From assembly GCA_043228905.1 (NCBI GenBank), contig JBHGNT010000014.1:3906001-3970000 (forward strand): a DNA stretch of 64,000 bases. The letters are read 5' to 3'. The translations under genes and the position numbers were made by a program. Below, in pieces: positions 1,694 through 64,000 of the stretch (positions are counted from its first letter, which is position 1; each line of letters opens with the position of its first letter). The notes below the pieces were generated by a model that worked only from the letters and a program-made list of their open reading frames with translations, was not told where the DNA came from and did no database searches. This DNA comes from Azolla caroliniana. Taxonomy: Eukaryota > Plantae > Polypodiophyta.

Positions 1694-1747
1694 TATTACA
1701 ATGGTTAAGGGTTCAACACATAGACCAAGAAGTCGTGGGTTCGATTC
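1694..1747 (+). promoter_or_regulatory. tRNA-like Pol III A/B-box module, antisense to copy A
   Basis: TATTACAATGG (1694) and GGTTCGATTC (1738), starts 44 nt apart. Confidence 0.6.
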
Positions 1748-30268: not shown

Positions 30269-31740
30269 TGTCATGATATGCCAAGACGCGAACATGTGAC
30301 CTTATGTTACATGGGTCGAGCTCTTACCATTAGGCTATGTATGGCAATACGAAGCTTCAGAAGTACTCCTGAGAACACTATAAAAGGAGGCACAAGGCAT
30401 TATTTCGAACCAAATCGGTTCAACGCCAGTCTTAAGCCTCCTAGCTACTATTGTATATTCCCTTAACATAATATATATATTTTGTTATCCTCATTCTCTC
30501 TCTCTCTCGATCTCTCTCTCTCACTCACTCTCTCCTTCCCTTGAGAGTTCTACACTTCCCTTAGTACTAATTCTCATCTTTTAGTACTAATTCCTTCTCT
30601 GTTTTAGTACTGTTCCTGACAATACTTCTCTCTCTTAGTACTGCTCCTAACAGTTTGAACCGATTTTGCCTCTCCTTCTTTCTCTTCCTTTATCTTCTTA
30701 CTTCTCCCTCCCTTCATAGTAATCTCTTATTCCTCTTTTCTCTCATACTATGGACAATGTTAGCGCTCAAGAATATCAATCCGTTTTCTCAGAGCTGCAA
30801 TGCTTGAAAGAGAAGTTCCTTGCTTTGGAACAAGAAAATCAACGATTGTTGGGGATCTTCAACAAATCTCCTTAGAAAACCAGCAGACACAACAACAACA
30901 TGGGGAACTAGTGGTACGCGTGCAACAACTCGAAGCAACCTTAGTAGCGATGCAACAAAAAGGACCCAGTACACAAGGGATTAATAAAGAACCCAAGATC
31001 GGCCTTCCCATGAGATTCGACGGAACGCGACCGCAGTTTAGAGGATTCCTTAATCAGGTATGATTAGTCATTCAAATGCATCCTTCTTGATATCCCACCG
31101 ATGCATCATGAGTGGGACTAGTAGGCACTCTACTTAGTGGCACGACTTTGGCATGGTTCGCCCCCCTGTTAGAAAAAAACTCTCCCTTGTTAAATAATTT
31201 TGAAGAGTTTATTACCAAGTTTAAAGCCTGTTTTGGAGATACTAATAGTGTTAAAGAACAACAATCAACAAAATCCGAAGATTGTATTGTCGTGAAGATG
31301 CGCGTGCGTGCATTGTTTGCGTGAACAAGACCACTAGGATCTTGGACCAGGGAGTTATTGAGAAGAGGACGATGTGAATGTAAGATTTGGGGAAACAATG
31401 AGCACTTCACTTGAGAAGATTGGAAATTTTTACACTCGAGAAAAAGATAGACAAGAATAATAATAAGAAGATTATTATATTGACGGTGATAGTGATGATG
31501 ATAATATCACATATTGAGCCCCCCCTTTACACAAGCCTTACTAGGGTTTTTAGAGGTCTATCCATGGTTCTAACATGCACAAAACCATGGGCTTGGACCC
31601 ATGGTTTTTGGGCACACGGTTTTTCTTGTGGCATGCACAAAACCATGGGCTTGGAACATGGTTTTGTGCACACGGTTTTGTACGGTTTTTTTTCTTTGCC
31701 TTTTGAATATGAAAAGAAATACATTTAAAGGACTTGGTAG

Positions 31741-31794
31741 TAGCCCTAATGGTAAGATAAATGTTTCCTATCTTGGAGGTGCAAGGTTCAAATC
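31741..31794 (+). promoter_or_regulatory. tRNA-like A/B-box module in the LTR, antisense to the element (second copy at 45737-45790)
   Basis: TAGCCCTAATGG and GGTTCAAATC, starts 44 nt apart. Confidence 0.62.
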
Positions 31795-36700: not shown

Positions 36701-39107
36701 CACTCGAGGATCCGGCCGAAGACGGTGAAGAAACAGAACCGACCGAAGAAGATGAAAATGATACCGGAACCGGCCCCGATCCCGAAATGGATTCGGATGA
36801 AGAAGAAGAATCGGAAGAACCGGTTACCGAAGCTCCGGAACGGAGATATCCTCTAAGAGAGAGAAGGGCCCCCCGGAGATTTCCGGAACCAGAGCATGTG
36901 CTGCTAACCGACGAGGGGGAGCCGGAGAGCTTTGAAGAAGCAAAGCATGACACCCAGAGCCGCAGGTGGTTGAGTGCCATGCAGGACGAGATGGATTCCC
37001 TGCATGAGAACCACACATATGAACTTGTGGAGTTGCCGAAAGGAAAACGGGCACTCCGTAACAAGTGGGTGTTCAAGCTGAAACCGGGAGATGCCGGAAA
37101 CCCCCCGAGATACAAAGCCAGGATCGTGGTGAAGGGGTTTCAGCAGAAGAAGGGCGTCGACTTCGACGAGATATTTGCCCCGGTAGTGAAGATGACCTCC
37201 ATCCGGACGGTGCTGAGCATAGCGGCAAGCATGGACCTCGAGGTAGAACAGATGGACGTGAAGACGGCATTCCTTCACGGCGACCTCGATGAAGAGATCT
37301 ACATGCAGCAACCGGAAGGATTCGAGAAGGAAGGGAAGGAGCACCTGGTATGCCGGTTGAAGAAGAGCCTTTACGGACTGAAGCAGGCTCCCCGGCAATG
37401 GTACCGGAAGTTCGACTCCTTCATGACCGACGAAGGGTACCTCAAAACGCAGTCCGACCACTGCGTGTTTGTGAAGGAGTTCGAAGGAGGAGACTCTCTA
37501 ATACTCCTCCTGTACGTGGACGACATGTTGATCGTCGGACGGGACCAGGTCAAGATACGGATGCTGAAGAAGGCTCTTCACCGAACCTTCTCAATGAAGG
37601 ACCTGGGTCCGGCGAGGCAAATACTAGGGATGCACATCATCCGGGACCGGAAGAAGAAGCAGTTGTGGCTGTCACAGGAGAAGTACGTGACGAAGGTGCT
37701 TCACCGGTTCAACATGTCGGAAGCAAGACCGGTCGGATCGACCCTCCCGGCAAACTGCAAGCTGTCCAGCAAGCAAAGTCCCAAGACAAAGGCTGAGAAG
37801 GAGGATATGATGAAAGTGCCGTATGCCTCAGCCGTCGGGAGCTTGATGTACGCCATGGTGTGTACGAGACCGGACATCGGATATGCAGTCGGAGTGGTGA
37901 GCCGGTACATGAGCAATCCCGGCAAAGAGCATTGGAACGCGGTCAAGTGGATACTCCGATACCTGAAGGGCACGGCAAACGTGTGCCTCCGATTCGGCTC
38001 CGGTAAACCCGAACTCGACGGTTTCACCGATTCGGATATGTCGGCTGATGCAGATACCAGCCGGTCCACATCAGGGTATGTGATGACGTATGCAGGGGGA
38101 GCTGTTTCGTGGCAGTCGAGGCTGCAGAAGACGGTTGCGTTGTCAACCACGGAGGCGGAGTACATGGCAGCTGTTGAAGCCGGCAAGGAAATAATATGGA
38201 TGAAGGACTTCATTAGAGAGCTCGGTATCCGGCAAGAGGAGTACCGACTCTACTGCGACAGTCAGAGTGCCATCCACCTTGCGAAGAACGCAGCCTATCA
38301 CTCCCGGACGAAACACATCCAGCGTAGATACCACTGGATCCGGGAAAGGATAGAAGACAAGGAGTTCGTGCTGACGAAGATCCACACCGACGAGAACGGG
38401 TCGGATATGCTGACCAAGGTGCTCACACCCGACAAGCTGGAAGCATGCCGGAAGAGGATCGGATTGGAAAGACATCCCATGCCGAAGTGAAGGGGGAGTT
38501 TGTTGGGATTTCGGTCCCTTTCGGATGGGATGGTTGGATATCGGAGATGAATGCCGACAAGCCCGGTTTCGGTTTCGGATCCGGATGACGAAGACCCCGG
38601 CTTCGGTGCCGGATGACGAATGTACCCGGAGAGCGATCCGGATGCAGGGACATATCCGTGAATATGTTCGCTACGAGCCCCCTGAGGCTACAGTTGTAAA
38701 TAGCCCAAAGTCATATAAGTATAAATATGACTTAGGGCAAACAGTTTTGTAGTTGCTTCTCATTTTTCTGTTTTTCCATTTTAGAGGAGTGAAGAGAGAG
38801 CAGCCGTGAGAGAGCGCGAGAGAGAAAGAGGTAGACGCCTCTGTGTATTTCCGCCGCCTGTGGCGAGGACAGCGAGCTCAAGGTCGTCGCCTTGGAGCTC
38901 GTCATTGTATACTTCTCTGTATAGTGTTGTTTGGAGTCTTGTACTCCCGTGGTTTTTTCCCCGCTTAGGGTTTTCCACGTTAATCCTTGTGTACTCGCGT
39001 TTCTTCGTTTTGTTTCTACGTGTGTTTCCTATTTTCTGCTCCATTGATCCGCGATTAATCGGTTGTGGCCGAGATAAGAAGGTGGATAGAAGGCACTATT
39101 ACTTACA
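33778..39107 (+). mobile_element. Intact Tnt1-like Ty1/copia retrotransposon with 607-bp LTRs (33778-34384, 38501-39107)
   Basis: TSD GAGTT, PBS TGGTATCAGAGC at 34388, PPT before 38501, LTRs identical by eye, single open ORF. Confidence 0.98.
34414..38490 (+). CDS. Copia Gag-Pol polyprotein (about 1358 aa)
   Basis: CFHCGKPGHFRKNC, WVVDSGASFH, HTDVC, DNGGEY, NGLAERMN, YVDD and SDMLTK. The first ATG after the PBS is at 34414. Confidence 0.97.
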   Translation: MEGGGSGQPGMMVLNAQNYADWKIKMEDLLIVRDLYEPIDRSEIPKGVLESEWKLLNRKAVATIRQYVDVSVLQHVANDTNAYEMWKKLSGLYERKNALNRTSLMRKIVNLKYRDGESMVEHVSTFMGFVNQLAAIKFPLEDAMQAIILMCTLPESWENLVVTLSTSCTEDNLSLQTVKTSILNEEARRRDKEPASDPKMLFTESDRGRQWNRSPQRREKSGTRSQSRGRPTCFHCGKPGHFRKNCRHYRKDNGADDTDSKKSPERNGAYRGATDRRGSDRRGQDRKGTTALAASEEEIMLITEEGELNVAGDETTWVVDSGASFHLTPERRYFSSYTAGEHGCVRMGNEGTCRIAGIGDVWLTTPTGCKMLLKDVRHVLEVRLNLISAGRLDDEGYTGSIRNGVMKFSKGSLIVVRARKVNTLYLMNARLCPEELNVAADTAGELWHKRLCHMSEKGMKRLAEDNLIPVKHVHLEKCTDCLAGKQNRTSFHSRPPTRRSAPLELVHTDVCQVETKSHGGAQYFVTFIDDHSRKLWTAPMKTKDQVLSVFKELHARVERESGKELKAIRADNGGEYRGQFQEYCRSKGIRLEFTVPKTPELNGLAERMNRTIMERVRSMLAHAKLPKGFWAEAMSTATYVINRSPSVPLDGDTPQKVWTGKEVSYRHLKVFGCLAYVHVAKDRRGKLDPKTRPCIFLGYGDDEFGYRVWDPVDKRIFRSRDIIFMENKTLADWESEKKMKSSKSTGEDQLYGEQSRPARDRLALEDPAEDGEETEPTEEDENDTGTGPDPEMDSDEEEESEEPVTEAPERRYPLRERRAPRRFPEPEHVLLTDEGEPESFEEAKHDTQSRRWLSAMQDEMDSLHENHTYELVELPKGKRALRNKWVFKLKPGDAGNPPRYKARIVVKGFQQKKGVDFDEIFAPVVKMTSIRTVLSIAASMDLEVEQMDVKTAFLHGDLDEEIYMQQPEGFEKEGKEHLVCRLKKSLYGLKQAPRQWYRKFDSFMTDEGYLKTQSDHCVFVKEFEGGDSLILLLYVDDMLIVGRDQVKIRMLKKALHRTFSMKDLGPARQILGMHIIRDRKKKQLWLSQEKYVTKVLHRFNMSEARPVGSTLPANCKLSSKQSPKTKAEKEDMMKVPYASAVGSLMYAMVCTRPDIGYAVGVVSRYMSNPGKEHWNAVKWILRYLKGTANVCLRFGSGKPELDGFTDSDMSADADTSRSTSGYVMTYAGGAVSWQSRLQKTVALSTTEAEYMAAVEAGKEIIWMKDFIRELGIRQEEYRLYCDSQSAIHLAKNAAYHSRTKHIQRRYHWIRERIEDKEFVLTKIHTDENGSDMLTKVLTPDKLEACRKRIGLERHPMPK

Positions 39108-39316
39108 GAGTTGAGCAAAGCGACACTCAAACTCAATGAACGCATCCATGGCACTCCGGTGGGTCTTCATCGATGACACCCATTGGTCGAACTTGCACAA
39201 ACTTTGTCCCTTCGGTCTCTCGTAGCCATATGCCTCCAATAGAGCCTCCTTGAAAGTCACCCATGAATCATGAGCTTCTTGAAGCTCTTTTACCTCTTTG
39301 TACTTCGGTTCAGCCA

Positions 39317-42300
39317 TTTTGAGAGACAAGCTCAACATTTGTGCATAATATGATGCGTAACCAGTGTGTAGACTGGGTGCGTAAACTGGTACGCAGACCG
39401 GTGCGTAGGAAGGCCATATCGGTGCGTAAACCGAAAGGCCGTTAGAGAGATATTCCTCGTAAGGAATAGTTTTGGGAGTAAGAGTCAAAGCTCATTTATG
39501 AGCAGTCAAGTATTGTCAGTACTTGTGTCAGCCCGATTGTCAAGGCTTGTATAAAAGTGCTCACTGAGCACATCCTATGTACAGATTGAGTATTTTTTGA
39601 ATTAAGTTCGTTTGTTACTCTCTGTCTCTCTCGTGCGTACTGTGCAAACCTAAGCTTTCCATTAAACCTACATTTTCTGTTGTTCGGTTTCCTGTACTAC
39701 TTCCGCATGCAATTCTTTTCATGGTATCAGAGCGCGAGGGTTGAGAACCTCTGCAGCCGACATAGCATGAAAGAAAAACCAACCAAGAAGAACATGCAAA
39801 ACCGATGGATAGAGGCATGGCCAACTTGCTTCCGACGGAGAAGCTCCACAGAAACAACTACGCGTCTTGGTCTTACAAGATGCACCAGTGCCTGCTCGGA
39901 CATGGTTACTGGAGCTATGTCGATGGTGCAAATGACACAACACCCGATTCAACACACAAAGACTTCCTGATGTGGGAACAATCAGTGAGCAGTGTTGTAC
40001 TGTTTCGCGTCTTGTGTGGATGAATAATTATTAAGCTACGTTCAGGATGCAAAAACACCGAAGGGTGCGTGGGAAAATCTGAAGAAGATCTTCGCCGCGA
40101 GCACCACAACTAGGAAGCTTCAGCTTTGACAAGAGTTGAGCAACCTACGGCAACATGATTTGTCGGTGGCTGACTATACCTCGAGGATTAAGGACATCTA
40201 CGACTCCTTAGCTTCCATCGATGTGAACATCGACGAAAGCGAGATGGTCCAGGTCTGTCTCGGGGATTTGGCGTCAAAATTTGGAGCGTTCCGAACTGTT
40301 GTGTGTACACGAGAGAATACGCTGTCATTTTTCGACTTACAGTTGATGCTCCTTATAGAGGAGAACCACGCGGGACGCGGGTGCATCGACAAGCATGCAC
40401 ACCGACAACAAGATGTTGTACACGGAGGGAGAGAGGCCCCGTGGTCGTGGCAGACGAGGCGAGTCAGTACGCAATGGAAGCGGTTGACAGGATCAAGGAA
40501 GAAGGCACCGAAGTGATGCCGACAGCAATTCCGGACCCTCCGGAAACAGGGGGAGTCGAGGCGACGAGAACCGGCAAGGGAAATCCGCCGTAGAATGCTG
40601 GTACTGTGGCAAGAAAGGCTATAGGGAGAGTGAGTGCTGGAAGAAGCGCGCCGATTCGGAGAGAACCAGGTCCGGATCAGGTTCCGGACAGACTGACAAA
40701 GGAAATCGGCAATGATTGCACTATGCCGAAGGATCCGGAGAAGGCGAAAAAGGGTCAATCTTCGTGATGAGACACAAAGCAAACTCAATGAAGCAGACCA
40801 CCCCGAAATCGGACGAGGTGTGGTACGTCGAGTCCGGCATGTCAAATCACATGACGAGCCATAAGGAGTGGTTCTCGTACCTAGAAAAACCGTTGCAACC
40901 GGGAGTAGTCGCAATCGGAGACAACACTCCGCATCCGATCGCGAATGTCAGAGAAGTTCCCCTGAGCCATGTCGGGCAGAAAGGGAAACTCATGAACGTG
41001 CTACACGTTCCGACAATCACGAAGAGCTTGGTGTCGATTGGACAGATCGTCGACTAAGGGATGGAGGTCCGGTTTACGCACCTTGGGTGCTTCATTGAGG
41101 AAGAAGGCCCTGTTATTGCGCAAGGGCGCAGAGATGGGAGGATGTTCATCCTCGACTCTACTGACGGTGGCACCGCAATGTTCGCGAAGGGACAAAAAGT
41201 CAAGTCGGACATTGACTTATGGCACAAGCAGATAGGCCACGTCAACTACCAGCGGCTTCAAGACCTGCAATCGAAACTAGTGGTGTTCGTATTGCCCAAA
41301 TTTAGTGGTCGGAGGGCACAGATTTGTGAAGCCTTCCAACTTGGGAAGCAACACCGACTTCCCCTCCCCAACGAGCGTAACCGGAGCCGGAACAAGCTCG
41401 ACTTGATACACTCCAATGTGTGGGGGCCGGCACAAAACGTTAGTCTTGGCGGGAGCCGATATTTCGTCTCCTTCATCGACAACTACACGCGGCACACGTG
41501 GATCTACCTCATTGAGAAGAAGAACGAAGTCTTCGACTGATTGCAGAACCTCAAAGGGTTCGTGGAAATGGAAACAGGGAGAAGGATCAAGTGCCTGCGG
41601 TCGGATGGCGGAAAAGAATACTTTTCCAGCCAATTCAACGGTTATCTACAACAGATGGGAGTTCGGCGCGAATTCAGTTTTAGATACACGCAGGAGCAAA
41701 ACGGCATGGTCGAGAGGAAAAATCGGTCGGTTGTTGAAGCGGCACGGGCAATGCCAGAGGAGAAGAGCTTGCCCAAGTTCTACTAGGCCAAGGCGGTAAG
41801 GACAGCGGTATACATCCAGAACCGAATTCGAGAAAAGGTGTCGGCCCACGAGCTATACTTCGGAACGAAGCCGAACTTGCGACACTTACGTGTTTTTGGT
41901 AGCATTGCGTATGTGCATGTGCCGAAGGAGAAACGGAGGAAGCTGGACGCAAAGGCCGAGAAATGTATCTTGGTCGGTTACTCGGACGAGCAGAAGGGTT
42001 ATAAGTGTTACAACCCGCGCACCAAACAAGCACGCGTGAGCCGCAACGTTGTGTTTGATGAGTCCACGTCCTGGTACTTGCCCTCGACTCCGGATCTCAC
42101 CTCCAATTTGAGTTCTAACGATGAGGTCAGCGAGGCCGAGATGTCTCCGGATGAGCTTGAAATCGGGACCTGCGAAGAGAGTCCGATTTCGTTTCCGTTA
42201 AGTGGACCAAATGGATGATTGAGTCGGCTCGACCAGTTCGATGAAGAGCTGGCGAGTAGCGGAGACTTGGTCGTGCATTCCCCCTTGCAGGAAGCCAAGG

Positions 42301-45005
42301 AGACGGCTTACGCACACAGAGAAAGGGAAGAAGCAGGTGTCGGATTCCGGCACGGATAGGAACGAGTCAGACCGAAGCGAGTCTGACTCCGAGGAAAGCG
42401 GTGATGGGTCTTCAAGAGCAAAGTCTGCATCAGCCGAGAGGACCTCGACATCAACTAATGACCGATTGCGCCGATCTGCCCGCCAGAAGAACCTAGTTGT
42501 GCGGTACGGATACAACGAGTACATGGCGCATCATTATGCATACATGACCCGTGTAGCGGAAGTGCGTGAGCCGGAGAGCTACGCAGAAGTGGCTAAGGAC
42601 GCAAACTGGCGCACCACGATGGAGGAAGAGATGCACACACTGGCGGAAAACGAGACCTGGGACCTGGTTGACGCACCGAAGGGTGTGAAGCCGATCGGAT
42701 GTAGGTGGGTGTACAAGGTCAAGTACAACACCGACGGCTCGGTCAACCGATACAAGGCCCGGTTAGTGGCAAAAGGCTATGCGCAGAAACACGACATCGA
42801 CTACGATGAGACATTCGTGCCGGTCACGAAGATGAAGACCATCCGTGTTTTGCTCACGGTAGCTACGGCAAAGGGGCGGCACTTACATCAGATGGATGTA
42901 AAGAATGCGTTCCTGCAAGGTGAGCTTGAGGAACACGTGTACATGGTACAGCCCCCCGGATTTCACTCCGGAACGAACACTTCAGCAGTGTGTCGATTGA
43001 AGAAGTTCCTTTACAGACTGAAGCAAGCCCCGCGTGCCTGGAACGCGAAGATTACGCAGCAACTGCGTCGGATGGGCTTTGCAACGTCGAAATCGAACTC
43101 TTCCCTGTTCGTCCGGAAAGGTCGACTTGGTCCGGTCAGTATTTTACTATATGTTGATGACTTGGTCATCACCGGCGCCGACCTAGGTGAGATCGACCGC
43201 ATGAAGATCCAGCTTGCGGCATCATTCGACATGAAGGATTTGGGGGACCTTCATTACTTCCTCGGGATCGAAGTGATCCGCACCCCCGAAGGCATACTGA
43301 TCAGCCAACGTCATTACGCGCTGAATATGCTCTTCAAATTCGGGATGGCAGACTGTAAGTCCGTCTGGACTCCTCTGGATAGAACCGTCAAGCTTCGCCC
43401 CGAGTTCGGAAAGGTATGCGACCCGACGAGGTTCCGTCAGATAGTCAGCAACCTCATATACTTGACCATCACCCGACCCGATCTCAGTTATCCGGTCAGG
43501 ATGATCAGTCAGTTCATGGCACGACCTACCGAGGAGCACCTTTAGTGTGCGCAACGCATACTGTGGTACGTAAGTGGCACTAAGGATCGGGGACTGCTAT
43601 ATCGGACCGGTACAGCCTCGCCGTTGGTCGGCTACACCGACGCCGATTAGGCTAGCATCGCCACCGATCGCCGATCCATGTCCGGATACTCGTTCTCTCT
43701 TGGGAGCGCCGCGATCGCGTGGAGTAGTAAGAAGCAACCGACAGTTGCACTGTCGAGCACCGAAGCTGAGTACCGAGGAGCGGCTGTCGCGACATGCGAA
43801 GCCATATGGTTGAAACGGCTACTTAAGGACCTGCAAGAGGAGGTGTCCGATCCGACAACGATCTACTGCGACAACCTCAGCATCATCTAGCTTGCCAAGA
43901 ACCCCGTTTTCCATGCCTAGACTAAGCACATTGAGGTGCACTACCATTTCGTCCGTGAGCGTGTTCTCTTCGGTGAAGTTGAACTTCAGTATGTTCCGAC
44001 GGATCGGCAGCCCGCCGACATCTTCACCAAGCCTCTTGGTCTAGACAAGTTACGGCAATTCTCGGTTGTGCTTGGGCTACGTCACCTCGACGTACTGAGC
44101 TTGAGGGGGAGAGGTGTCCCGAATGACCACGAAAGGGGGAGAGAAGACTACGACGCCGAGTCGGATGATGAATTCGATTTCGGATCGGCTAAAGAAGCCG
44201 AGGGCGGACCCTTGGAAGAATCCGGAAGCAGACAGAAGGAGAGTAGTCGAAATGAAGAGCTGAAGCCAACCAAGTGTGGGAGAGATGAAGCCATCAAGGG
44301 CCAGAAGACTGAAGACAAGTTGGAGACAGCCCACTCGAACAACAACGAAAACCAATCGGAGGTAGATGAGTCAGTTCAGATGTTTGATTCGAATACGCTG
44401 AATCAACCATGGGTCAAGCGGAAGAGAAGGCGGCATAAGAGGTGCGAACACCGCAACAGCAAGGAAGCTGAGAAGGGCTGTGGGAGCAGACAAGCCGACC
44501 GGAAGGGTTGAAGCGTGCGGAGTCGAACAGGCCGAGGAACGCGAGTGAGCATGGATCTAGGACAAGCTGCAGTGTAGATCCGGCGGAGCAGGCGGAACCT
44601 CAAGTTAAGCTTGAGGGGGAGTGTTGAGAGACAAGCTCAACATTTATGCGTAATACGATGCGTAACCAGTGCGTAGACAGGGTGCGTAAACCGGTATGCA
44701 GACCGGTGCGTAAACTGAAAGGCCGTTAGAGAGATATTCCTCGTAAGGAATAGTTTTGGGAGTAAGAGTCGAAGCTCATTTATGAGCAGTCAAGTACTGT
44801 TAGTACTTGTGTCAGCCCGATTGTCAGGGCTTGTATAAAAGTGCTCACTGAGCACATCCTATGTATAGATTGAGTATTTTTTGAATTAAGTTCGTGTGTT
44901 ATTCTCTGTCTTTCCCGTGCATACTGTGCAAATCTAAGCTTTCCATTAAACCTGTGTTTTCTATTGTTCGGTTTCTTGTACTTCTTGCGCACGCAATTCT
45001 TTTCA
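39317..45005 (+). mobile_element. Full-length degenerate copia element (LTRs 39317-39721 and 44622-45005)
   Basis: TSD AGCCA, Met PBS at 39722, PPT near 44613-44621, gag-pol with multiple stops. Confidence 0.95.
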
Positions 45006-46534
45006 AGCCACCACCCGACAAAAGTATTGCAAGCTCATAGCTTCTTTTACACCTCTCGAATCCATCTCAGCATTGTAGGTGTCTAGAAAATTTTGGACTA
45101 TGCCCCCGTTGAAATAGCCGACTCCCTCGACCACGCTTTCGACGGCTTGTTGGGCCGCATCTCGTCTTTTACCTTCTCTCGAAAATTCTATCATCATCTT
45201 CGACATTCCCTTCATGAGATATTCCTCGTCCATCTTCATCCTCCCCTGCTGCTCTTCACATCGGGTTCACCAAGAGATGTCGCGAAGATGCGCATGTGGG
45301 CGTGCTTTGCTTGAATAGGACCACTCGGGTCTTGGACCAGGGAGTTATTGAGAAGAGGACGATGTGAATGTAAGATTTGGGGAAACAATCAGCACTTCAC
45401 TTGAGAAGATCGGAAATTTTTACACTCGAGAAGAAGATAAACAAGAAGAAGAAGAAGAAGAATATTATATTGATGGTGATAGTGATGATGATAATATCAC
45501 ATATTGAGCCCCCCCTTTACACAAGCCTTACGAAGGTTTTTATAGGTCTATCCAATACTTCTAACATGAACAAAACCATGGGCTTGGACCCATGGATTTT
45601 GGGCACACGGTTTTTCTTGTGGCATGCACAAAACCATGGGCTTGGAACATGGTTTTGTCCACACGGTTTTGTACGGTTGTTTTCCTATGCCTTTTGAATA
45701 TGAAAAGAAATACAAAATATTTAAAGTACTTGGTAGTAGCCCTAATGGTAAGATAAATGTCTCCCACCTTGGAGGTGCAAGGTTCAAATCTTGTTTGCAT
45801 CCCTCTATATGCACTCAAGTGCCACTAGACCTTCGGATAATTTTCATATTTATAATCGTTTGCATAATGTGCGTGGAACTACACTGTTTCACAATTTCTC
45901 CCATTGGACGTGCAACATCACGATAGTGCCAAGGTAAACGGCCGGCCTTGGCTTATGTTGCAGATTTCCGTTTTCTCGCCACCGATATTCCCTGGGATGA
46001 CCAGGCACTAATGGAGCAATTTCGTTTTGTCCTACGTAATGATGTTAAAGATTTACTCTTAACTTTCCCCGAGTAGCCAAAATCATTGACCGAAGCAATC
46101 AGTCGTGCGGTGTGATGCGATAATCGCCTCTTCGAACGACGTTCGGAACGTCAGTTCCAAATGCCACGGATAAGATCGGAACCCACCAATGCTTCAATCC
46201 TAGCAGAGCCTTTAGCAAGGGAGTCATTCAATACGCGTCTAACTAATACTCAAACTCCAAAGGAAACGACATCACTCGTCGTCGCGGACCACTATCGGAA
46301 GAAGAAAAGTAGCGACGCAAGGCAAATTGATTATGTCTTTATTGCGGTGGACCGAGGCATATTGCAGTGAATTGCCTCCATTGGCCAAAAAGGTAGGTAA
46401 TTCAAATAACCTCTAGTACTAATAGTACTAAACTCGAATCTATTCCTCTAGGTTTGTTTGATAGTCCTAATAGCCCAAGCCTTTCAAACAAATTTGAAAT
46501 CCCTAGTCAACTAGAAGAAGAGTTAAATGATTAA

Positions 46535-50011: not shown

Positions 50012-50510
50012 CACTCGTCATGTTTTAAAGGGGGGTTAGTGTCATGATATGGGAAGACTCGAACCCATGACCTTATATTACATGGGTCAAGCTCTTACCA
50101 TTAGGATATGTATTGTAATACGAAGGATATTATTTTCATTTAAGTTTTACTATAGAAAATTGATGTATATTCCAGATTTCTCTGGAACATTCTAGAAACT
50201 TCAGGACTACTCCTAAGAACACTATAAAAGGAGGCACAAGGCATTGTTTCGAACCAAATCAGTTCAACGCCAGTCTTAAGCCTTCTAGCTACTATTGTAT
50301 ATTCCCTTAACATAGTATATATCTTTTGTTATCCTCATTCTCATTCTCTCTCTCTCTCTCTCTCTCTCACTCACTCACTCACGCACTCTCTCCTTCTCTC
50401 GAGAATTCTACACTTCCCTTAGTACTAATTCTCATCTTTTAGTACTAATTCCTTCTCTGTTTTAGTACTATTCCTGACAGTACTTCTTTGTCTTAGTACT
50501 GCTCCTGACA

Positions 50511-51750: not shown

Positions 51751-53205
51751 TGTAGATGCCTATTTTATCTTCTTAATAGGACCACCTCCACCCAGACACT
51801 TTTATTTGGCTAGGTAATACAAATACATCTTTCCCCTTTCGCCCACGCCAAAAAATTTCAATAGTAATAGACTACGATTTTTTATTTCTGAAACCGCTTA
51901 ATGCTACCCTTCGAATAGAAAGTAAAATTCACAATTTATCTAAACACCCCCTCACATATAAAGGAAACACAATTGCTAAGCATAGGACTCAAATACATTC
52001 CACCATCCTCTCTACCTTCCACTAATACTATCCTTAAAGAATTTGCTAGTTTAAGTAGATCTTTAGGTTTAAAACATTCCTTTAGAGACATGGACTCACC
52101 CCCCCCCTTAATCCATTTAAACTACCAAATCCTAATTGGAATCCACGATCTCAATATCCTTCTCTTGAAATATTATTAAAAAACATGAAACCCTCCTTTT
52201 GTCTAAACTCTAATAACCTAAACCGAAACCTGTTAGGACACCGCTTTACCTTCGCACATCCCTTAAGAGCCTTAGGAAAAACAACCAAATTATCATTCTT
52301 TCGGCTCATAAGAACATGGGAGTATGTGTTCTAGACAAAGATACCTATTATGAAAAAGCTATAAACCACATCTCGGATACCACCACCTATAGAAAAGTAA
52401 CCCATTTTCCGTTAGAAGAATTCTTATTTTGCCTTAATAGTATAGTGCAAAAAAATCTAGGAACACTTTACTTTATCGAAACTAATTACATACTCCATAA
52501 ACCCCTAAAGGGATATCAAGTATCTAATATTTACTTTCTCCCTAAACTCCATAAAACACCCATAACACGTTCGCGTTCACAAGTGGAAGGATCGCACATT
52601 CCACTTATAGATTCCGTTTATAATCTTGCGATTTTAGGCAATTTTTCAAAAACTTGATACACCAGTATCGCATGTTTTAAATCACATGTAAAATTTGCTA
52701 AAGTTCTGAGATTTAACAAGTTTCAAAATGATAATTTCTAAAATTGAATAGTTTTTCAATAAATGTTTAAACATTCATGGTTTGCAGATATGAAATGTAG
52801 TTAAGTTAAAGAAAATCACAATGATTAACTCAAGGCACAAGTTAAGATTAATGGTTTCACCATCTTGAGGAGATGTAGGTTCTAGAAGTGGAAGTTACAT
52901 CTATTGTTAGACTTCAAAATGTTTTAGGTATAAGAGGTAACATTATAATCCTTAATGCCATCATCTATAAATTTAGTGCTCATTAAAATCCATATATTCA
53001 CAACTCAAGAAATGTATACAATATTCATAAACAATTTTGATAAATTCATAACTCCTAAAATATAGACGATATTCGTAAACTGTCAAAACTGCCACACTTA
53101 CATGTAAACATTAATATATCAATTTGAGCATATCACATATTTATCAAGGTATCCACAATGCTCTCCTCTTCTTCATTTTGAGAACTCCCCTACAAAATAT
53201 GTGAA

Positions 53206-54432
53206 GTAAATGACATTTGCAAGGTTCAATTACCATCAACACAATTATTAATGGTTTTTTGTTAATCAAGGAAGCACATGTTCAACATACTTCTTTACAG
53301 TATCGATATGCATCTTTTACTCTTGTAAAAACAGAGATTTTAGTACAATTAGAGTTCATGTAAATCCTAAACCTCTTTTATTTGAAAAAAAAGAAGATTT
53401 CTAAACATGAACTCCATACATTGTATCGAGTTGATTTAAAAAACAAAGTTTTCATCACAATTCCATACAATGTATCGAATTCATGTTTAAATTTTTGTTT
53501 TTCCAAATAAATAAATAAATAATAAAATAAAAAAAATTGAAAAAAATTACTTTAAACATGAACTCCATATATTGTATTGAATTGTGGTAAAAATTACTTT
53601 AACATGAACTCAGATTTTCAACACGCGATACGGTGTATCGAGTTCATGTTTAAAAACTTAGCTTTTTGACATGAACTCGATAGGATGTATCGAGTTCTTC
53701 TTTAAAACATTTAAACATGAACTCAATACATTGTATTGAATTCATGTTGAAAAGTCAACATTTCAACACGAACTCGATACAGTTGAAAAACAGAGTTTTC
53801 AAGACCAACTTGATACATTATATCGAGTTCATGTTTAAAGTTCTTCTTTTGGGTTTTTTAAAAAACAATTTTGATTTTTTTTCTATTTATTTTGGGGTTT
53901 TTTGTTTTTAAAAATAAAATAAAATTTGAAGTGCTAAAAAAACCAAAGTTTTCATCACAAGTCGATCCAATGTATCAAATTCATGTTTAAAGTCTTCCCC
54001 CCCCCCCTCCCCCTCCCCCCAAAAAAAACAATTTACTTTAAACATGAACTCGGTACATTGTATTGAATTGTGGTGAAAAATCTAGTTTTTTCATGAACTC
54101 AAGCTCGATTTTTTTATTTTAAATACGAGAAAAAAAACTTTGAACATGAATTTGATATATTGTATCGAATTGTGATGAAAACTCTATTTTTTACATCAAC
54201 TCGATACAATGTATGGAGTTCATGTTTAGAAATCTTCTTTTTTTCCAAATAAAAGAGGTTTAAGGTTTACATGAACTCTAGAGGTTTTTACAAGAGAAAA
54301 AGATGCATATCGATACTGCAAAGAAGTATGTTGCATAGCAAGACACCTTATGGTTAACATGTGCTTCATTGATTAACAAAAATCCATTAATAATTGTGTT
54401 GATGGTAATTGAACCTTGCAAATGCCATTTAC
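53206..54432. repeat. Foldback element with arms of about 290 bp and internal palindromic units of about 37 bp
   Basis: 53206-53490 is inverted at about 54140-54432. The unit is AAACATGAACTCGATAC-NNN-GTATCGAGTTCATGTTT and the flanks are GTGAA/GTGAT. Confidence 0.85.
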
Positions 54433-54499
54433 GTGATTTATAAAATTTTCTCGTGGTTCTTAATTCCCACTTCAAGCACTTGGTTAATCTTCATAGTTT

Positions 54500-54990: not shown

Positions 54991-55911
54991 GTATTTTTTG
55001 TGCAACGATATGTAACAAATTTAGACAACATTTTATCGAATGAAATAAAAAAGTTGATTGTTTTGAAATCTTTCACTTATGATATCGTTAGGATCTAAAA
55101 TACTACTAGTTGTAATTTGTCCTTAAAAATACACAAAGTTGCTTTTCGTATTTGGCCAAAATTTGGCATTTCTCAATTTTGCCAAATGGTGAAAATTTTA
55201 GCTTTTTCATTAAGTTTTGGAGAACATGTGATATTGGTATCAAGGTGTTTTGTGAAATGGCCAAAAAAGCCTCAAAATAAGACGAAATATTCCTTATCCT
55301 TCCATTTGTCCGCGATCCTTCCACTTGTGAATGCGAATGTGTTCCATTAGCTTTAGACCGATCTGTTCTTATACTAACTCGATATTCGAACAAACCTCAA
55401 AATGGCTACATTTTCAACTTTTACCCATCCTAGTACTCCAAAACCAATACCTAAAAGACTCACACTCCCTCATCCAAAAACTAGAACAACGAACCGCCCC
55501 TCCTAACAGTTTCATCTTCTCTTTCGATGTAGAATCCCTTTATCCTAGCATCCGCCATAAGTTAGGACTCGAAGCACTTTGCCATCATCTACCCCCATTT
55601 TTCCTTAGCCAAGACTAATCTTATCTATACCCTTAGTGGTCTAACCCTAGAGTATCACTACTTGACCTTTGATAATCAAGTATACCAACAAATCAAAGAA
55701 ACAACCATGGGTAGCAACTTCTCAGTTGTCTATGCATGCCTTTTCTTATCACACTTAGAAAACTCACAAACCACACCCCATCTCTTCTATTTTACTAGGT
55801 ACATTGATGATACCTTCGGGGTTTAGACAGGTACGAAATCCAAACTCTTAGACCACCTTATTTTCTAAAGCCTTATGACCGATAACTCTATTAAACTTAC
55901 GATCCATACAT

Positions 55912-56954
55912 TGTTGTGAAGATCCGTCACTACGCACAGATCATGAGGCAGAACCGCCGGTGTTCTGGACCGGAAGGACTCGAAGTTTGCATAGCTTTAG
56001 CAAGAAAGGAATTAAGATAGATTGAAAGAGAGAGAGATTGAGATAAGATAGAACACTTGACTTTAGATTGAGAGAGATTAAGATTGAACTCTTGACTTGA
56101 GATTTGAAGAACAAGATTGATACATCAATTGGATAACGAATTTCTTACTTTTAATTTCTTAATTAGTACATTGCTCCCCTTTTGTCTTTTTCAACCACTC
56201 TTTTATAGACACCCCCATGCATATGATGCATGTGAGGCTACAAGACTTGCATACAATGCATGTGATGCATGTTTGCCATTTGGCGCTCATGCATTACATG
56301 TGATGCATGTTTGCCATTTGGCGCTCATGCATTACATGTGATGCATGATAACCATGTCACTCAATCAAGCTCTAATATGAGAATTTCATGTAAAAGTATA
56401 ATGATAGAAAAAACATTTCTAAGCAAATGACTTGTCTTAGTGGTGAGTTTACTTCCTCCTACCTTGGAGGTGCAAGGTTCAAGCCTTGCTTGCATCCCTT
56501 TGATTACAAATTTCTAATAGGTTTTTTTAGTCTAGATCATTTTGTTCGTTTCACATCGAAATTATCGTGATTAACCTATCCGATCGATCCGTCTATCTGG
56601 TTCGGTTCCGACCTAGTGCTCCGGTTTATCCAGTCCGGTTTCAGTGCTGGTGCCAGTTCTGGTTTGATTGCCGTCTCCATCCGGTTTCGGTTTCGGTTCC
56701 GAGTCCATCCTCGTCCACCTGGTTCCCAAAACCATTATGACTAGTTAAGCCACAGTTTAACCCAAGAACATTATGTGCTCCACTCATAGACAAAAAGTAA
56801 TAGGTTCTGGCTCTGCTTATATACTGTGGGATCCTGATTTGTCCTATCTATGTGGGATATCTCATAGTTTTGTTTTTCTCTTCTTTTTCTCAAACTTCAC
56901 ATTCACATAACTTGACATTTATTTGTCCGTTTCAAATGTAGTAAAGTACATTCG
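55912..56954 (-). mobile_element. Partial LTR of the Trp-primed gypsy group with a 38-bp tandem repeat and a tRNA-like module (56432-56485)
   Basis: TGTTGTGAAGAT terminus after ACAT, a minus-strand TATAAAA near 56201-56207, and the CCTTGGAGGTGCAAGGTTCAA block shared with the 31288/45278 LTRs. Confidence 0.65.
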
Positions 56955-58813: not shown

Positions 58814-58824
58814 TGTCATGGCAA

Positions 58825-58877
58825 GACTCGAACCCATGACTTTATGCTACATGGGTCGAGCTCTTACCATTAGATTA
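58825..58877 (-). promoter_or_regulatory. tRNA-like A/B-box module at the LTR 5' end, antisense (also at 30285-30337 and 50056-50108)
   Basis: TAATCTAATGGTAAGAGC...GGTTCGAGTC, box starts 43 nt apart. The copy at 30337 has a consensus TAGCCTAATGG. Confidence 0.65.
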
Positions 58878-58953
58878 GGAATTGTATTTTGTAGAATATT
58901 ATTTTCATTTATACTTTATCATAGAAAATTGATGTATATTCCAGATCTCTCTG

Positions 58954-58998
58954 GAACATTCTAGAAGCTTCAAGATTATTCCTAAAAACACTATAAAA
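58954..58998 (+). promoter_or_regulatory. Heat-shock element and TATA box
   Basis: GAAcaTTCtaGAAgcTTCaaGATtaTTC followed by TATAAAA at 58992. Confidence 0.75.
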
Positions 58999-59023
58999 GG
59001 AGGCACAAGGCATTGTTTTGAAC

Positions 59024-59249
59024 CAAATTGGTTCAACACCAGTCTTAAGCCTCTTAGTCGATTTGTACTTATTTTTCATATAATATAAGAGTTGCTGTCA
59101 TCATCCTATTTCTCTCTCTCTCCTCTTCTCACTTCCTCGCTCTCGGGAATCTTACGCAGTCCCGTCCTCTTAGTACTAATAGTACTACTCTTCTTAGTAC
59201 TAATTCCATCTCTGTTTTAGTACTATTCCTGACAGTTTGAACCAATTTG
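59024..59249 (+). other. Self-priming duplex (predicted RNA 5' end paired with the PBS)
   Basis: CAAATTGGTTCAA (59024-36) is the exact complement of TTGAACCAATTTG (59237-49). Confidence 0.8.
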
Positions 59250-59301
59250 CCTCTAGCCTACTTGTCACTCTCCCTCATCCTCCTACCCTTTTCCCTATAC
59301 T

Positions 59302-60459
59302 ATGGCTACTGTTAGCGCCCAAGAATACCAATCCGTTTTCTCCGAGCTACAGTGCCTAAAAGAAAAGTTTGTTGCCCTGGAACAAGAAAACCAACGGCTG
59401 ATAGGGGATCTGCAACAAATCTCTCTAGAAAAACAACAAACGCAACAACAACATGGGGAGTTAGCGTTACGGGTACAACAACTCGAAGCAGCGTTGCAAC
59501 AACAAGGATCCAGTCCCCAAGGATTTCATAAAGAGCCCAAGATTGGACTTCCTGTGAAATTTGATGGAACGCGTTCGCAATTCCGGGGATTCCTTAATCA
59601 GGTACGCTTAGTCATCCAGATGCATCCTTCCCGATATCCCACTGATGCATCTCGAGTCGGCCTAATAGGCACGCTACTTAGCGGCTCAGCCTTGGCATGG
59701 TTTGCTCCGCTTCTAGAAAAACAATCACCCTTACTTAATAATTTTGAAGATTTTATTGGTGAGTTTAAAGCCTGCTTTGGAGACACCGACAGCATCAGGA
59801 CGGCGATCAACAAGATCCGGCGATTGCGTCAAGGCGATCGTCCAGCCTCTGCCTACGCGGCGGATTTCCGCCTACTTGCTTCAGATATACCCTGGGATGA
59901 TCAAGCACTAATGGAGCAGTTTCGCTATGGCTTGCGAAACGATGTCAAAGATCTACTTCTAACTTTCCCCGAAGAACCAAAGTCTCTTACGGAGGCAATC
60001 AGTCGAGCAGTTCGATGTGACAACCGCCTTTCTGAGCGGCGTTCAGAACGTCAATTACAGATACCACGCTCGAGGCCAGAGCCCACTTACGCCGCAGTCG
60101 CGGCTAAACCGTTTGCACGAGACACACCTCAAGCAAATACTTCGACACCGATGGAGATCGATACCATGCGTCGACGCGGCCCGTTATCGGAAGAAGAAAA
60201 GCAACGACGACGTGCCAATCGATTATGTCTTTATTGCGGTGGACCAGGACATATCGCCATCAATTGTCCCCATAGGCCAAGAAGACAGGTAAATCAAATC
60301 GTCGCCTGTACTAAACCCGAGTCAATTCTTCCCTTTGGAGTGTCTGATAGTATTAATAGTACTAATAGAGTGTCAGATAGTATTCATAGTACTAATAGCC
60401 CAAGTATCTCAAATAAATTTGAAATCCTTAGTCAATTAGATGAAGAGTTAAAGGATTGA
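59302..60459 (+). CDS. gag: Gag, 385 aa
   Basis: Intact ORF with a capsid motif and CLYCGGPGHIAINC. Confidence 0.95.
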   Translation: MATVSAQEYQSVFSELQCLKEKFVALEQENQRLIGDLQQISLEKQQTQQQHGELALRVQQLEAALQQQGSSPQGFHKEPKIGLPVKFDGTRSQFRGFLNQVRLVIQMHPSRYPTDASRVGLIGTLLSGSALAWFAPLLEKQSPLLNNFEDFIGEFKACFGDTDSIRTAINKIRRLRQGDRPASAYAADFRLLASDIPWDDQALMEQFRYGLRNDVKDLLLTFPEEPKSLTEAISRAVRCDNRLSERRSERQLQIPRSRPEPTYAAVAAKPFARDTPQANTSTPMEIDTMRRRGPLSEEEKQRRRANRLCLYCGGPGHIAINCPHRPRRQVNQIVACTKPESILPFGVSDSINSTNRVSDSIHSTNSPSISNKFEILSQLDEELKD

Positions 60460-60501
60460 GTCCAGCCAAAATAGGAGCCATTTGGTTGGACAGCAGCCCT
60501 A
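60447..60501 (+). other. Putative -1 frameshift signal (G_UUA_AAG plus pseudoknot)
   Basis: 11-bp stem at 60460-70/60481-91, and loop TAGG pairs with CCTA at 60498-60501. Conserved in all three copies. Confidence 0.75.
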
Positions 60502-63500
60502 GATCTGTACAGCCCATTAGTGGTTCCATTCCTTCCAAGCAAGTTAGCAATGTGTTCCTAGCCCAAGTCATTGTTAGTACTAAAAGTACTCCCCCAGTAC
60601 CCGTCCTAGCACTTTTAGATTCCGGAGCTAATTCCTGTTTCATGGATCGAAATTTTGCCCAAGCTTCTCAGATATCCTTAAGAAAACTTCCTTGTCCCGC
60701 ATCTGTAGTGGTCATTGATGGTCGTCCCATTGCTTCCGGGAATATTGTAGAAGAATCAGAACCCATTCAAGTTGTCCTAGGTAGTTTTGTGTGTATAATA
60801 TCATTTAATATAATTAGTAGTCCAGAGCATCCCATTGTCCTAGGATTACCTTGGCTTGAATTACATAATCCAGCCATAGATTGGAGAACAAGAGAAGTCC
60901 GATATCGACCACCCCAAGAATCAACTCACCGAGTTTCGACCATTTCACTCCATCAACTACGCGAAGAAGGACCCAAGGAGGCAATGTTCCTATTTGCCAT
61001 ATCAGTACATCCTTCTAGCACTATTAAGAAGGACTCCTCAATACAACTTCCGGCAAAATATCATCCTTATGCCGATGTATTTGACAAGGTAAAAGCCGGT
61101 ACCCTTCCTCATCACCGTCCCTATGACTGTCCCATCGATTTACAACCAGGAACCGAGCCACCATGGGGACCAATTTACAACTTGTCACCCACCGAGTTAG
61201 AAGTCCTTCGAGCCTACATAGAGGAGAACTTGGCAAGCGGGTTCATCCGTCATTCGAAATCTCCGGCCGGTGCACCCATCTTCGTTGTCAAGAAGAAAGA
61301 TGGCTCACTCGTCTTGTCGTTGATTACCGCGGATTGAATAAAGTCATCATCCGGAATAGGTATGCACTTCCTCTTATATCAAGTCTTTTAGAGCGAGTTA
61401 ATGGTGCCAAGTTTTTTACTAAAATCGACCTACGAGGAGCGTATAATCTCGTGCGGATCCGACCGGGAGATGAGTGGAAGACCGCTTTTCGCACGCGGTA
61501 TGGGCATTTCGAGTATACTGTTATGCCGTTTGGCCTAACCAATGCACCCGCAGTCTTCCAACACATGGCAAATGATATATTCAGAGACCTCTTGGATATC
61601 TGTTTGATCATTTATCTGGATGATCTGTTGATTTATTCGAAGACCCAGGAAGAGCACGATTCTCATGTACTATTAGTACTAAAGCGACTCCGCGAGAATG
61701 GTCTTTATGCCAAGCTAGAGAAATGTAGCTTTGACTGCAAGCAAGTGGAATTTCTAGGCTACGTCATCTCCTCAAAGGGCATCGCCATGGATCCAGCTAA
61801 AATCCAAACTGTACTAGAGTGGCAAATTCCACGGTCGGTACGAGATGTACAATGTTTTCTAGGCTTTGCTAACTTCTACCGTAAGTTTATACAGGATTAC
61901 TCGAAGATTATTTTACCTCTCACACAACTTACGAAGAAGGGCCAAGCATTTCTTTGGTCCATCGAAGCAGATATGGCTTTTCGGCATCTTAAGAAAGCCT
62001 TTACATCAGCACCGATTCTAGCTCATGTGGATACAAGCAAACCATTCATCATGGAGGCCGACGCATCAGATTTCGCCCTCGGTAGCATCCTTTCTCAACA
62101 AGGCGATAAAGAAGAGTTGCATCCGGTGGCTTTCCATTCGCGCAAATTCAATGTCGCAGAAATCAACTACGAAATACATGACAAGGAGTTATTAGCCATC
62201 GTGGATTCATTTGTACAATGGCGGCATTTCTTAGAGGGCTCTCCACATCAGGTCATCGTCTTTAGCGATCATAAAAATCTTGCTTATTTTCAGAACGCTC
62301 GCGTACTAAATCGACGGCAAGCTCGGTGGGCGCAATTCCTCACGCGTTTCAACTTCGAAATCACATATCGACCGGGGAAGCAGCAAGGAAAAGCAGATGC
62401 ACTATCACGGCGTTCATATCTTGCACCTCGTCCTGGTGACGCAACATTTGATAATCAAAAGCAAGTAATCTTGGCACCAACACGATTGCACACGACGCGG
62501 ATTTTTCACACCCCGATGGATTCACGGATTACCGATGACATACGTGCAACCTTGAAGACGGATAGTTTTGCTCAAGACATCCTGGCGCACATTGATACTT
62601 CTCGGGCATCCTGTTCTCAGTCTCAACAACCAGGTATTGACTACCGACAATTCGAATATCATGATGGGTTGTTATTCTTTAAAAAGCGCGTATATGTCCC
62701 CGATTGCTCCTGTCGCCTTCAAATCGTCCAACATTGTCACGACACCCATACGGCGGGACATTTCGGTAGTACCAAGACGTTGGAGTTAGTGCAGCGATCT
62801 TTTTGGTGGCCCCACATGCGCCGTTTTGTCGACGACTACGTTCGGACCTGTGATGCTTGCTGCCGAGCAAAGATGCCACGACACCATCCATATGGCTTGT
62901 TGGAACCTTTACCAATTCCAAGTAAGCCATGGCAGTCTATTTGTCTTCATTTTATTACAGATTTGCCGGTCTCGAAGGGGTTCGATGCTATCCTAACCGT
63001 CGTCGATCGATATACGAAGATGGCACATTTTGTGCCATGTACTAAAGCCATCACTAGCGAGGAAACCGCCGCTCTTGTTATGCGTGAGGTATTTCGGCAT
63101 CATGGCCTACCAGAGAGTATTATCAGTGACCGAGGCCCGCAATTTGTCTCCAAATTTTGGCAGCATCTCTTCAGGATGCTCAAGGTCTCCTGCAACCTCT
63201 CCTTCGGCTACCATCCTCAAACTGACGGACAGGCGGAACGAACAAACCAAACGTTGGAGCAATATCTCCGGTGTTTCCTGAGTTATCAACAGGACGATTG
63301 GGCCGAGATTCTCCACTTTGCGGAGTTTGCGTATAATAATGTTATTCATTCCTCGACTCGGGTCTCCCCATTTCTCGCTTATACCGGTTTCCATCCTCGC
63401 TGGTCGGTGATCGACACTCCGGAGCTACCTACCAACCCTCGTGCCGAGGACCATTTGGAGAGGCTACGCAAGATCCAGATGGATCTCTCTACTCACCTTC

Positions 63501-64000
63501 GTCATGCTCAAAACACACAGAAGACTTATGCGGATCGTCATCGGATTCCCTCCTCTTTTGCCATCGGAGATCGAGTATGGCTCTTACGTCGTCACATCAA
63601 GACTACTCGACCGTGCGACAAGTTGGATTATCGACGACTCGGTCCTTTCCGTATTACGGGGAAGATTAATGATGTCACCTTCCGCCTGGATCTCCCTCCG
63701 CAGCTTCAGATACATCCGGTTTTCCATTGTTCTCTTCTTGAACCTTATAAAACAAACACCATTCCCGATCGTGTGACACCACCGCCGCCCCCGCTGGAGT
63801 TGGACGCCGGCCCGGAGTATGAAGTTGCTGCCATCCTCGATTCCAAACTTGTTCGCAACAAACTTTATTACTTGGTCGATTGGCTCGGTTATAGTCCGAG
63901 CGAACGTACTTGGGAACCCGTCGAGAATGTTGCCAATGCACAAGATCTTCTTGCTGATTTCCACCGAAAGTATCCGGACAAACCCGGTCCGCAGTTAGCG
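60456..64000 (+). CDS. pol: Pol (PR-RT-RH-INT-chromodomain) with a single 1-nt deletion near 61309; open to the window end
   Basis: DSGA protease. The frame starting at 61310 carries YLDD, RNase H, integrase and EYEVAAILDSK at 63815 in the same phase. Confidence 0.9.

Follow-up and report, generated by a model that had tools for sequence, protein, structure and literature searches.

Why would a retrotransposon that encodes its own gag-pol and keeps a Pol II TATA box also carry, at the end of its LTR and facing outward, the A and B boxes of a tRNA promoter? The question is raised by the window analysed here (the whole 64-kb stretch of Azolla caroliniana DNA, 64,000 nucleotides), which is a stack of nested retrotransposons. 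In it, the initial annotation had placed an A-box-like and a B-box-like motif, 43 to 44 nt apart and antisense to the element, at the U3 end of four chromovirus LTRs, and had suggested that they form a tRNA-like Pol III promoter module built into the LTR terminus, which may serve as a TFIIIC insulator or as an outward or antisense Pol III transcription unit.

The module in the chromovirus LTRs of the window

We found an antisense A box and B box at the U3 end of all four chromovirus LTRs (Table 1), with A-to-B distances of 43, 43, 43 and 44 nt in D, C, B and A, so both the placement and the spacing of the initial annotation are borne out. The number of LTRs was also correct; however, they belong to three separate elements, since LTR B (5') and LTR C (3') are the two LTRs of one element. 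These two are identical at 352 of 384 aligned bases, the element is split by nested insertions at 31288-45925, and its flanks, checked for a 5-bp target site duplication, agree at three of five bases, the other two being C-to-T differences. The statement that every LTR carries both boxes needs a similar adjustment: both are recognizable in all four, but the B box of copy B has decayed, having lost G52 and the normally invariant A58.

Element A lies on the minus strand and keeps both boxes, as had been claimed; the odd look of its LTR is partly explained by an inverted R-U5-primer site segment. At 1270-1490 of copy A, the segment holding R, U5, the LTR end and the primer site is inverted relative to U3, TATA box and gag. 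The self-primer here runs straight into the complement of the U5 end, an arrangement that resembles a self-primer fused to minus-strand strong-stop DNA. The relative L024 has the normal segment order.

The features of element D are given in Table 1; its 3' LTR lies outside the window, past position 64000. Its chromodomain matches Pfam Chromo (E 2e-14), and we recognized the aromatic cage residues by eye. In the U3 of A and D (1510-1660 and 58940-58990), repeated palindromic units of TCTAGA type stand between the module and the TATA box; such units are common to diverged relatives and are possibly enhancer sites. Elsewhere in the window, 53197-54441 holds an array whose ~50-nt AT-rich units run in both orientations and which ends in long inverted arms, much like a foldback or MITE element.

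Table 1. Positions of the modules and of the surrounding features in the window
Feature	Position	Strand	Remarks
Module in LTR of element A	1694..1747	+	LTR on minus strand, terminus 1776; spacing 44; A box 1694, B box 1738-1747
Module in LTR B (from 30269)	30285..30337	-	B box 30285-30294, decayed (G52, A58); A box 30337
Related module, 3' LTR of non-coding element E	31741..31794	+	LTR 31288-31929, minus strand; antisense, U3
Same module, 5' LTR of element E (45278-45925)	45737..45790	+	
Module in LTR C (50040-50510)	50056..50108	-	directly after polypurine tract; B box 50056-50065, A box 50108
Related module, LTR-like sequence F (from 55912)	56433..56485	+	minus-strand TATA-like box at 56207
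5' LTR of chromovirus D	58814..59234	+	421 bp, TG...CA
Imperfect inverted repeat (20-bp hairpin, 11-nt loop)	58818..58870	-	arms 58870-58850 and 58838-58818
B box of LTR D (tRNA positions 52-61)	58825..58834	-	11 nt inside LTR end
Conserved block of LTR D (tRNA positions 44-48)	58838..58842	-	AGGTY across lineages; G46, T47 invariant in 26/26
A box of LTR D	58866..58877	-	T8 at 58877; 43 nt before B box
Pol II TATA box of LTR D	58992..58999	+	114 nt from A box, facing away from it
Predicted self-primer of LTR D	59024..59036	+	13 nt complementary to sequence just past LTR (from 59235)
gag-pol of element D	59257..64000	+	Gag, protease, RT, RNase H, integrase, SH3, chromodomain (~63818-63970)

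Chance produces such modules rarely. When we scored the LTRs with an A/B-box detector, whose consensus agrees with published motifs, the module score was reached by 0 of 200 dinucleotide shuffles for D, C and A and by 1 of 200 for B. A matrix scan of the whole window returned seven sites, all in LTR-type sequence, against none in five shuffled windows. Besides the four chromovirus LTRs, these sites comprise the two LTRs of an element E and one LTR-like sequence F. Our analysis adds to the initial annotation three further modules, in two other LTR types, together with a hairpin in D.

Occurrence and conservation among relatives

We chose relatives by integrase-chromodomain similarity, blind to the motif, taking the best 80 of 534 related metagenome-contig stretches, which gave 76 loci. 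The start of the 3' LTR after the polypurine tract was placed by script in 64 of the 76 and by hand in one (L046); 11 loci had no callable LTR start, and four with <100 nt were dropped. Together with window copies C and D, this left 63 sequences in 34 clusters at 85% amino-acid identity. A sequence was called positive if it scored at least 13 of 15, antisense, within the first 130 nt of the LTR, a cut that was set after the scores were known.

Under this definition, the module occurs in 25 of the 34 protein clusters, down to 55% amino-acid identity of the integrase. The score of each positive cluster was matched by at most 3 of 200 shuffles, and the nine other clusters score 0-12. Orientation and place are strongly biased: among 37 rows, 28 are positive in antisense and one in sense, whereas LTR bases 130-260 are positive in 1 of 31. 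All 28 positive rows have an A-to-B distance of 43 or 44 nt, with 40-47 allowed by the search, while the distance from module to LTR end ranges from 11 to 65 nt. The positives are D and 24 of the 25 clusters from one ENA assembly series, against none of eight clusters from other assemblies, and a matrix scan of 116 kb from the other-assembly loci gave no module site. The survey result rests on one sample series and the window. No module was seen in the LTR of Selaginella SM-Tcn1, which we read by eye, and among viral contigs there were no relatives of the integrase or of the element E motif.

In a tree of 44 rows, the label of presence or absence needs three changes. The module is found in a main group and again in L050, L057 and L071, which are nested among module-less rows, so that two chromovirus lineages carry it in the same orientation. 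Two separate gains, an exchange of LTRs, or a single old gain followed by losses would each produce this pattern. In four loci inside module-bearing groups (L058, L072, L074 and L032) the module is eroded or gone, L032 having a weak B box and no A box, and these relatives are useful as natural mutants.

We then compared the letters of the module across 26 lineages (25 cluster representatives and copy A). Mean information content is 1.08 bits in the A box, 1.59 in the block at tRNA positions 44-48, 1.47 in the B box and 0.43 in the fixed-length spacer, where the box values are partly circular, the boxes having been scored by the detector, and positions 44-48 were unscored. It is in this unscored block, outside the textbook B box, that G46 and T47 are invariant in all 26. 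Unanchored alignments of six groups agree: the B box and block 44-48 exceed the identity of flanking U3 in six of six, and the A box does so in four of six, being no better than its flanks in two, including D's own group. Thousands of contigs match LTR D (three other species-labelled DNA samples, four runs), and among the 40 of 75 variable rows listed for this LTR, one falls in 58814-58873 and 13 in 58874-58925. The initial annotation had named boxes no more conserved than adjacent U3 as a result that would speak against its proposal; we observed the opposite.

Conservation does not extend to the structures of a tRNA or to the end of a transcript. The stems of the cloverleaf are not paired above column shuffles (acceptor 39% vs 36%, D 54% vs 57%, anticodon 39% vs 37%, T 51% vs 54%), and this pairing test led us to reject both the cloverleaf stems and a 15-48 pair as conserved features. 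A conserved terminator was likewise rejected, the first T4 lying 1-1589 nt past the B box in 3'-LTR context (1-909 nt in 22 of 24 loci), and T4 runs occur inside the module about as often as expected (2 of 26 vs 2.6). Upstream, AT content is 86% in the stretch 16-30 nt before the A box, against 60% in the spacer, with U3 at 73-78% AT further upstream; CAA occurs near the start in 10 of 26 vs 4.6 expected, among rows that are related. On the other side of the module, a Pol II TATA box lies at 114-208 nt in the 17 rows with a credible call; seven further rows have none, and two more gave calls at 28 and 49 nt that we discounted as probably false. We also considered conservation of the integrase attachment site as the cause and rejected it, as the offset from the LTR end varies.

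The hairpin gives a more mixed picture. The D module folds at -29 kcal/mol (z -5.56, reached by 0 of 200 shuffles), with the B box paired to the DNA that follows the A box, and D also folds on its sense strand (z -3.6). A fold is seen for the C module (z -2.9) but not for those of A, B and E. When the boxes are kept constant, z is below -2 in 6 of 26 lineages and below 0 in 19. A single register (positions 21-36 with 48-64) has at least seven of ten outer pairs in 11 of 26 lineages. Outer pairing in this register is 61% vs 58% in column shuffles, a level reached by 64 of 1,000 shuffles (10 of 1,000 for Watson-Crick pairs only) and inflated by kinship; the inner pairing is reached by 174 of 1,000. 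In the 11 lineages, wobble pairs favour the antisense strand by 29 to 13, though the conserved Gs of the boxes confound this count. The hairpin is a real feature of some lineages and not of the module overall.

The searches for ordinary tRNA genes and for a SINE are consistent with these results. ARAGORN called no tRNA in the window and, at its default threshold, no module in the 76 loci; under relaxed settings it called the modules of L016 and L050, among many chance calls. Rfam gave no tRNA match up to E 10. The possibility that the module is itself a tRNA gene was rejected, as it has no cloverleaf stems and no T-run terminator. The initial annotation had also allowed for a recent SINE present in a few copies. 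In a scan covering 408 kb this outcome did not appear: the matrix sites lie in LTRs, seven of seven in the window and 48 of 50 in the 76 loci (five judged by eye), the other two being real tRNA genes that serve as a positive control. Loose contig ends before the D module proved to be a longer LTR terminus with its polypurine tract. Three real tRNA genes (Asn, Thr-AGT and Asp; L030 552-627 and 831-906, L016 128-201) lie ~140-270 bp from 5'-truncated chromovirus fragments, amounting to three in 344 kb and to 2 of 76 loci.

Altogether, spacing and conservation lend good support to the initial proposal of a tRNA type-2 Pol III promoter geometry built into the LTR, and to its being kept by selection; on this sequence evidence we consider it highly probable that the module is a selected tRNA-type promoter motif.

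Related modules in LTR types E and F

The modules of E and F extend the observation to other LTR types. Element E has ~640-bp LTRs and ~2.3 kb of internal sequence, in which five ORFs gave no Pfam match, so there is no coding domain by which to classify it. Its primer site and purine tract place it on the minus strand, and its module is therefore again antisense in U3, ~135 nt from the end. E and F have 62 bp at 82% in common, only around the module. The primer site of E is a putative tRNA-Trp match, as in Phygy. Its flanks, checked for a 4-bp NCGN duplication, differ at two of four bases. A Phygy-like identity for E is possible, by the putative tRNA-Trp match and this decayed duplication only.

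Contig depth along the U3 of E, which is a rough measure, peaks about tenfold over the flanks at the B-box block, and two contig records hold this block and the LTR end at differing spacings, which suggests that diverged relatives share the B-box block of E. Five contigs of one presumed-RNA run match the E region; contigs give neither strand nor level.

Two copia insertions are nested in element E (31288-45925), and that at 33773-39107 has identical 612-bp LTRs and an open frame of 1384 aa, so it is very young. F interrupts a fragment at 55331-55911 that, by eye, is like a Penelope-type reverse transcriptase; the other end of F was not found.

Possible roles of the module

The explanation that we favour, to which we give somewhat less than an even chance, is that a captured Pol III type-2 promoter is kept as a TFIIIC/TFIIIB site protecting the Pol II promoter of the LTR. 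A tRNA gene or SINE would have been captured in U3, and the module would then be copied into both LTRs in each round. Host TFIIIC, with TFIIIB, would bind the outward-facing A and B boxes and keep the Pol II promoter open; at the 5' LTR, the bound factors may form a nucleosome-poor barrier against flanking heterochromatin or read-through transcription. The outward direction would put TFIIIB on the promoter side and send any Pol III away from the promoter. Such a barrier would suit elements whose chromodomain is thought to steer them into heterochromatic repeat islands, and selection would act only on copies that transpose again, leaving old copies such as B to decay.

We favour a DNA site because boxes, spacing, side and direction are kept, whereas the fold and the end of a product are not: with neither a terminator nor a tRNA fold conserved, the DNA itself is favoured, while the hairpin of some lineages leaves an RNA product as a further candidate. 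The barrier part of the reading is drawn by analogy with yeast and mammalian barriers, where tRNA genes and ETC sites are reported to act in a TFIIIC-dependent manner (PMC12409998; PMC2040200) and Pol III complexes to block Pol II read-through (PMC4228148), and from moss chromoviruses that are heterochromatic yet transcribed, as described for RLG1 of P. patens in its heterochromatic islands (PMC7466625). Several points weigh on the other side. The B box alone suffices at ETC sites (PMC12409998), so the A box kept here suggests TFIIIB loading and possibly real transcription. Barrier activity in fission yeast is independent of orientation (PMC2040200), so a barrier alone does not explain the fixed antisense orientation, and at the 3' LTR the bound factors would be in the way of Pol II as it transcribes the element itself. 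In some lineages the module folds into a long hairpin, and in two of six groups the A box is no better conserved than U3. In addition, nine of 34 clusters and SM-Tcn1 are without the module, which implies that it is dispensable for this element type. A broader version of the proposal seems to us rather doubtful, namely that a portable anti-silencing tRNA promoter was repeatedly domesticated in two unrelated Ty3/gypsy lineages, which would carry their own TFIIIC barrier into targeted heterochromatin and, in some lineages, make an antisense RNA whose hairpin engages small-RNA machinery of the host, akin to viral Pol III RNAs.

If the module were a working Pol III gene with the antisense hairpin RNA as the selected product, transcription from the 3' LTR would pass through the U3 end and the polypurine tract into the end of pol, and the RNA could be a small-RNA precursor, a decoy for silencing enzymes or a brake on element RNA. 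Both boxes are kept at a spacing competent for transcription, AT-rich upstream DNA and CAA match the upstream elements of plant tRNA genes (PMC13578239), and foamy-virus LTRs carry A/B boxes from which Pol III makes miRNA precursors (PMC3993851); the folds of D and C (z -5.6 and -2.9), the register pairs in 11 of 26 lineages and the antisense-leaning wobbles are in line with this. Yet most lineages have a weak hairpin or none and register pairing barely exceeds column shuffles, U3 is AT-rich in any case, and the wobble count is confounded by the box G residues; we regard this reading as rather unlikely, though it is the main rival. Antisense RNA and a TFIIIC site can coexist. It is improbable, in our estimate, that tRNA-derived motifs serve a purpose unrelated to TFIIIC, either as sense-strand Pol II enhancer sites or as a stem-loop of genomic RNA or cDNA beside the polypurine tract that aids plus-strand priming or end processing: what is conserved is the set of invariant tRNA promoter letters at the spacing of a tRNA gene, the module lies anywhere from 11 to 65 nt from the terminus (~135 nt in E), and its fold is not conserved. 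In favour of such a use, the module of the 3' LTR directly follows the polypurine tract, D can also fold on its sense strand (z -3.6), and G46 and T47 are invariant while lying outside the textbook B box.

Alternatively, TFIIIC on the cDNA ends might guide insertion or nuclear position by tethering either the pre-integration complex or inserted copies to clusters of Pol III or condensin. The module is close to the cDNA end engaged by integrase, Ty3 is reported to target Pol III genes, and three real tRNA genes stand near element fragments in 2 of 76 loci; however, no tRNA gene accompanies the four module LTRs of the window and the elements already have a chromodomain, which leaves tethering with a quite small probability. 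That the module is a neutral relic, a SINE or tRNA fragment in an ancestral LTR carried along as a functionless passenger, is largely refuted, and we give it very little credence: its boxes are conserved against a nearly saturated spacer of fixed length, and this holds in two lineages and at integrase identities as low as 55%. The lost B-box residues of copy B, the weak or absent module in L032, L058, L072 and L074, and the derivation of all positive loci from one assembly series and the window would fit such a relic.

Comparison with known systems shows what is new. The TRIMs Helenus, Ajax and Cassandra ('TRIMp3'; PMC10886601) are alike in having tRNA-like (or 5S) LTR sequence in which boxes A and B are conserved and the RNA fold is largely lost, and SINE capture has been proposed as their origin (PMC10886601). 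They are short and non-autonomous, and their Pol III promoter is proposed or shown to make their own RNA, while their autonomous partners are argued to need Pol II (PMC10886601). In contrast, the present chromoviruses code for gag-pol, retain their Pol II TATA box and have the module facing outward. The foamy-virus cassettes (PMC3993851) resemble ours in their A/B-box units, autonomous carrier, overlap with the Pol II genome transcript and hairpins; however, they have terminators at the hairpin base and demonstrated miRNAs, whereas our modules have no conserved terminator, a hairpin in some lineages only, and an antisense position at the very end of the LTR. The barriers of tRNA genes and ETC sites also place TFIIIC sites, which here are predicted, beside Pol II promoters and stop heterochromatin or read-through (PMC12409998; PMC2040200; PMC4228148). 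They are fixed yeast or mammalian host loci, and an ETC site is an extended B box without TFIIIB; the site proposed here would be carried by a mobile element and has both boxes, and its conserved A box argues against a pure ETC site.

As to family, A-D may be Tcn1 chromoviruses, with which they share a chromodomain integrase and predicted self-priming (PMC2864245; PMC6317226), and the primer site and possible 4-bp target duplication of E fit Phygy (PMC6317226). Among plants, Tcn1 is on record in mosses and club-mosses; Phygy is known from P. patens (PMC6317226). The accessible parts of the papers on Tcn1, Phygy and P. patens contain no mention of a tRNA-like or Pol III element in these LTRs (PMC2864245; PMC6317226; PMC7466625). 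The only plant Helenus is from Selaginella, and 'not a few' Repbase LTRs are said to have tRNA-like parts, of which only TRIMs were analysed (PMC10886601); a term search of that source found no statement on their orientation. Given this remark, the tRNA-like match may have been noticed before without study (PMC10886601). The initial annotation knew of no description for these elements, and the literature agrees as far as it was covered, thinly for subscription papers and Repbase annotations: no antisense A/B-box module was found described in autonomous plant LTRs. Capture of small-RNA genes in the LTRs of non-autonomous elements is known, and the autonomous, outward-facing case appears to be new.

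Our results thus extend such capture from non-autonomous elements, which use it as their own promoter, to autonomous ones in which it faces away, so that another role is needed. The invariant G46-T47, outside the textbook B box, is maintained although no RNA fold is, which suggests that TFIIIC makes a longer contact in these plants. LTRs of this kind may also inflate the tRNA and SINE annotations of the genomes that carry them. The broader question addressed is how a retrotransposon stays transcribed after insertion into heterochromatin; the TFIIIC barrier evidence cited here comes from yeast and mammals, and a 55-bp, high-copy, point-mutable element would make both questions testable.
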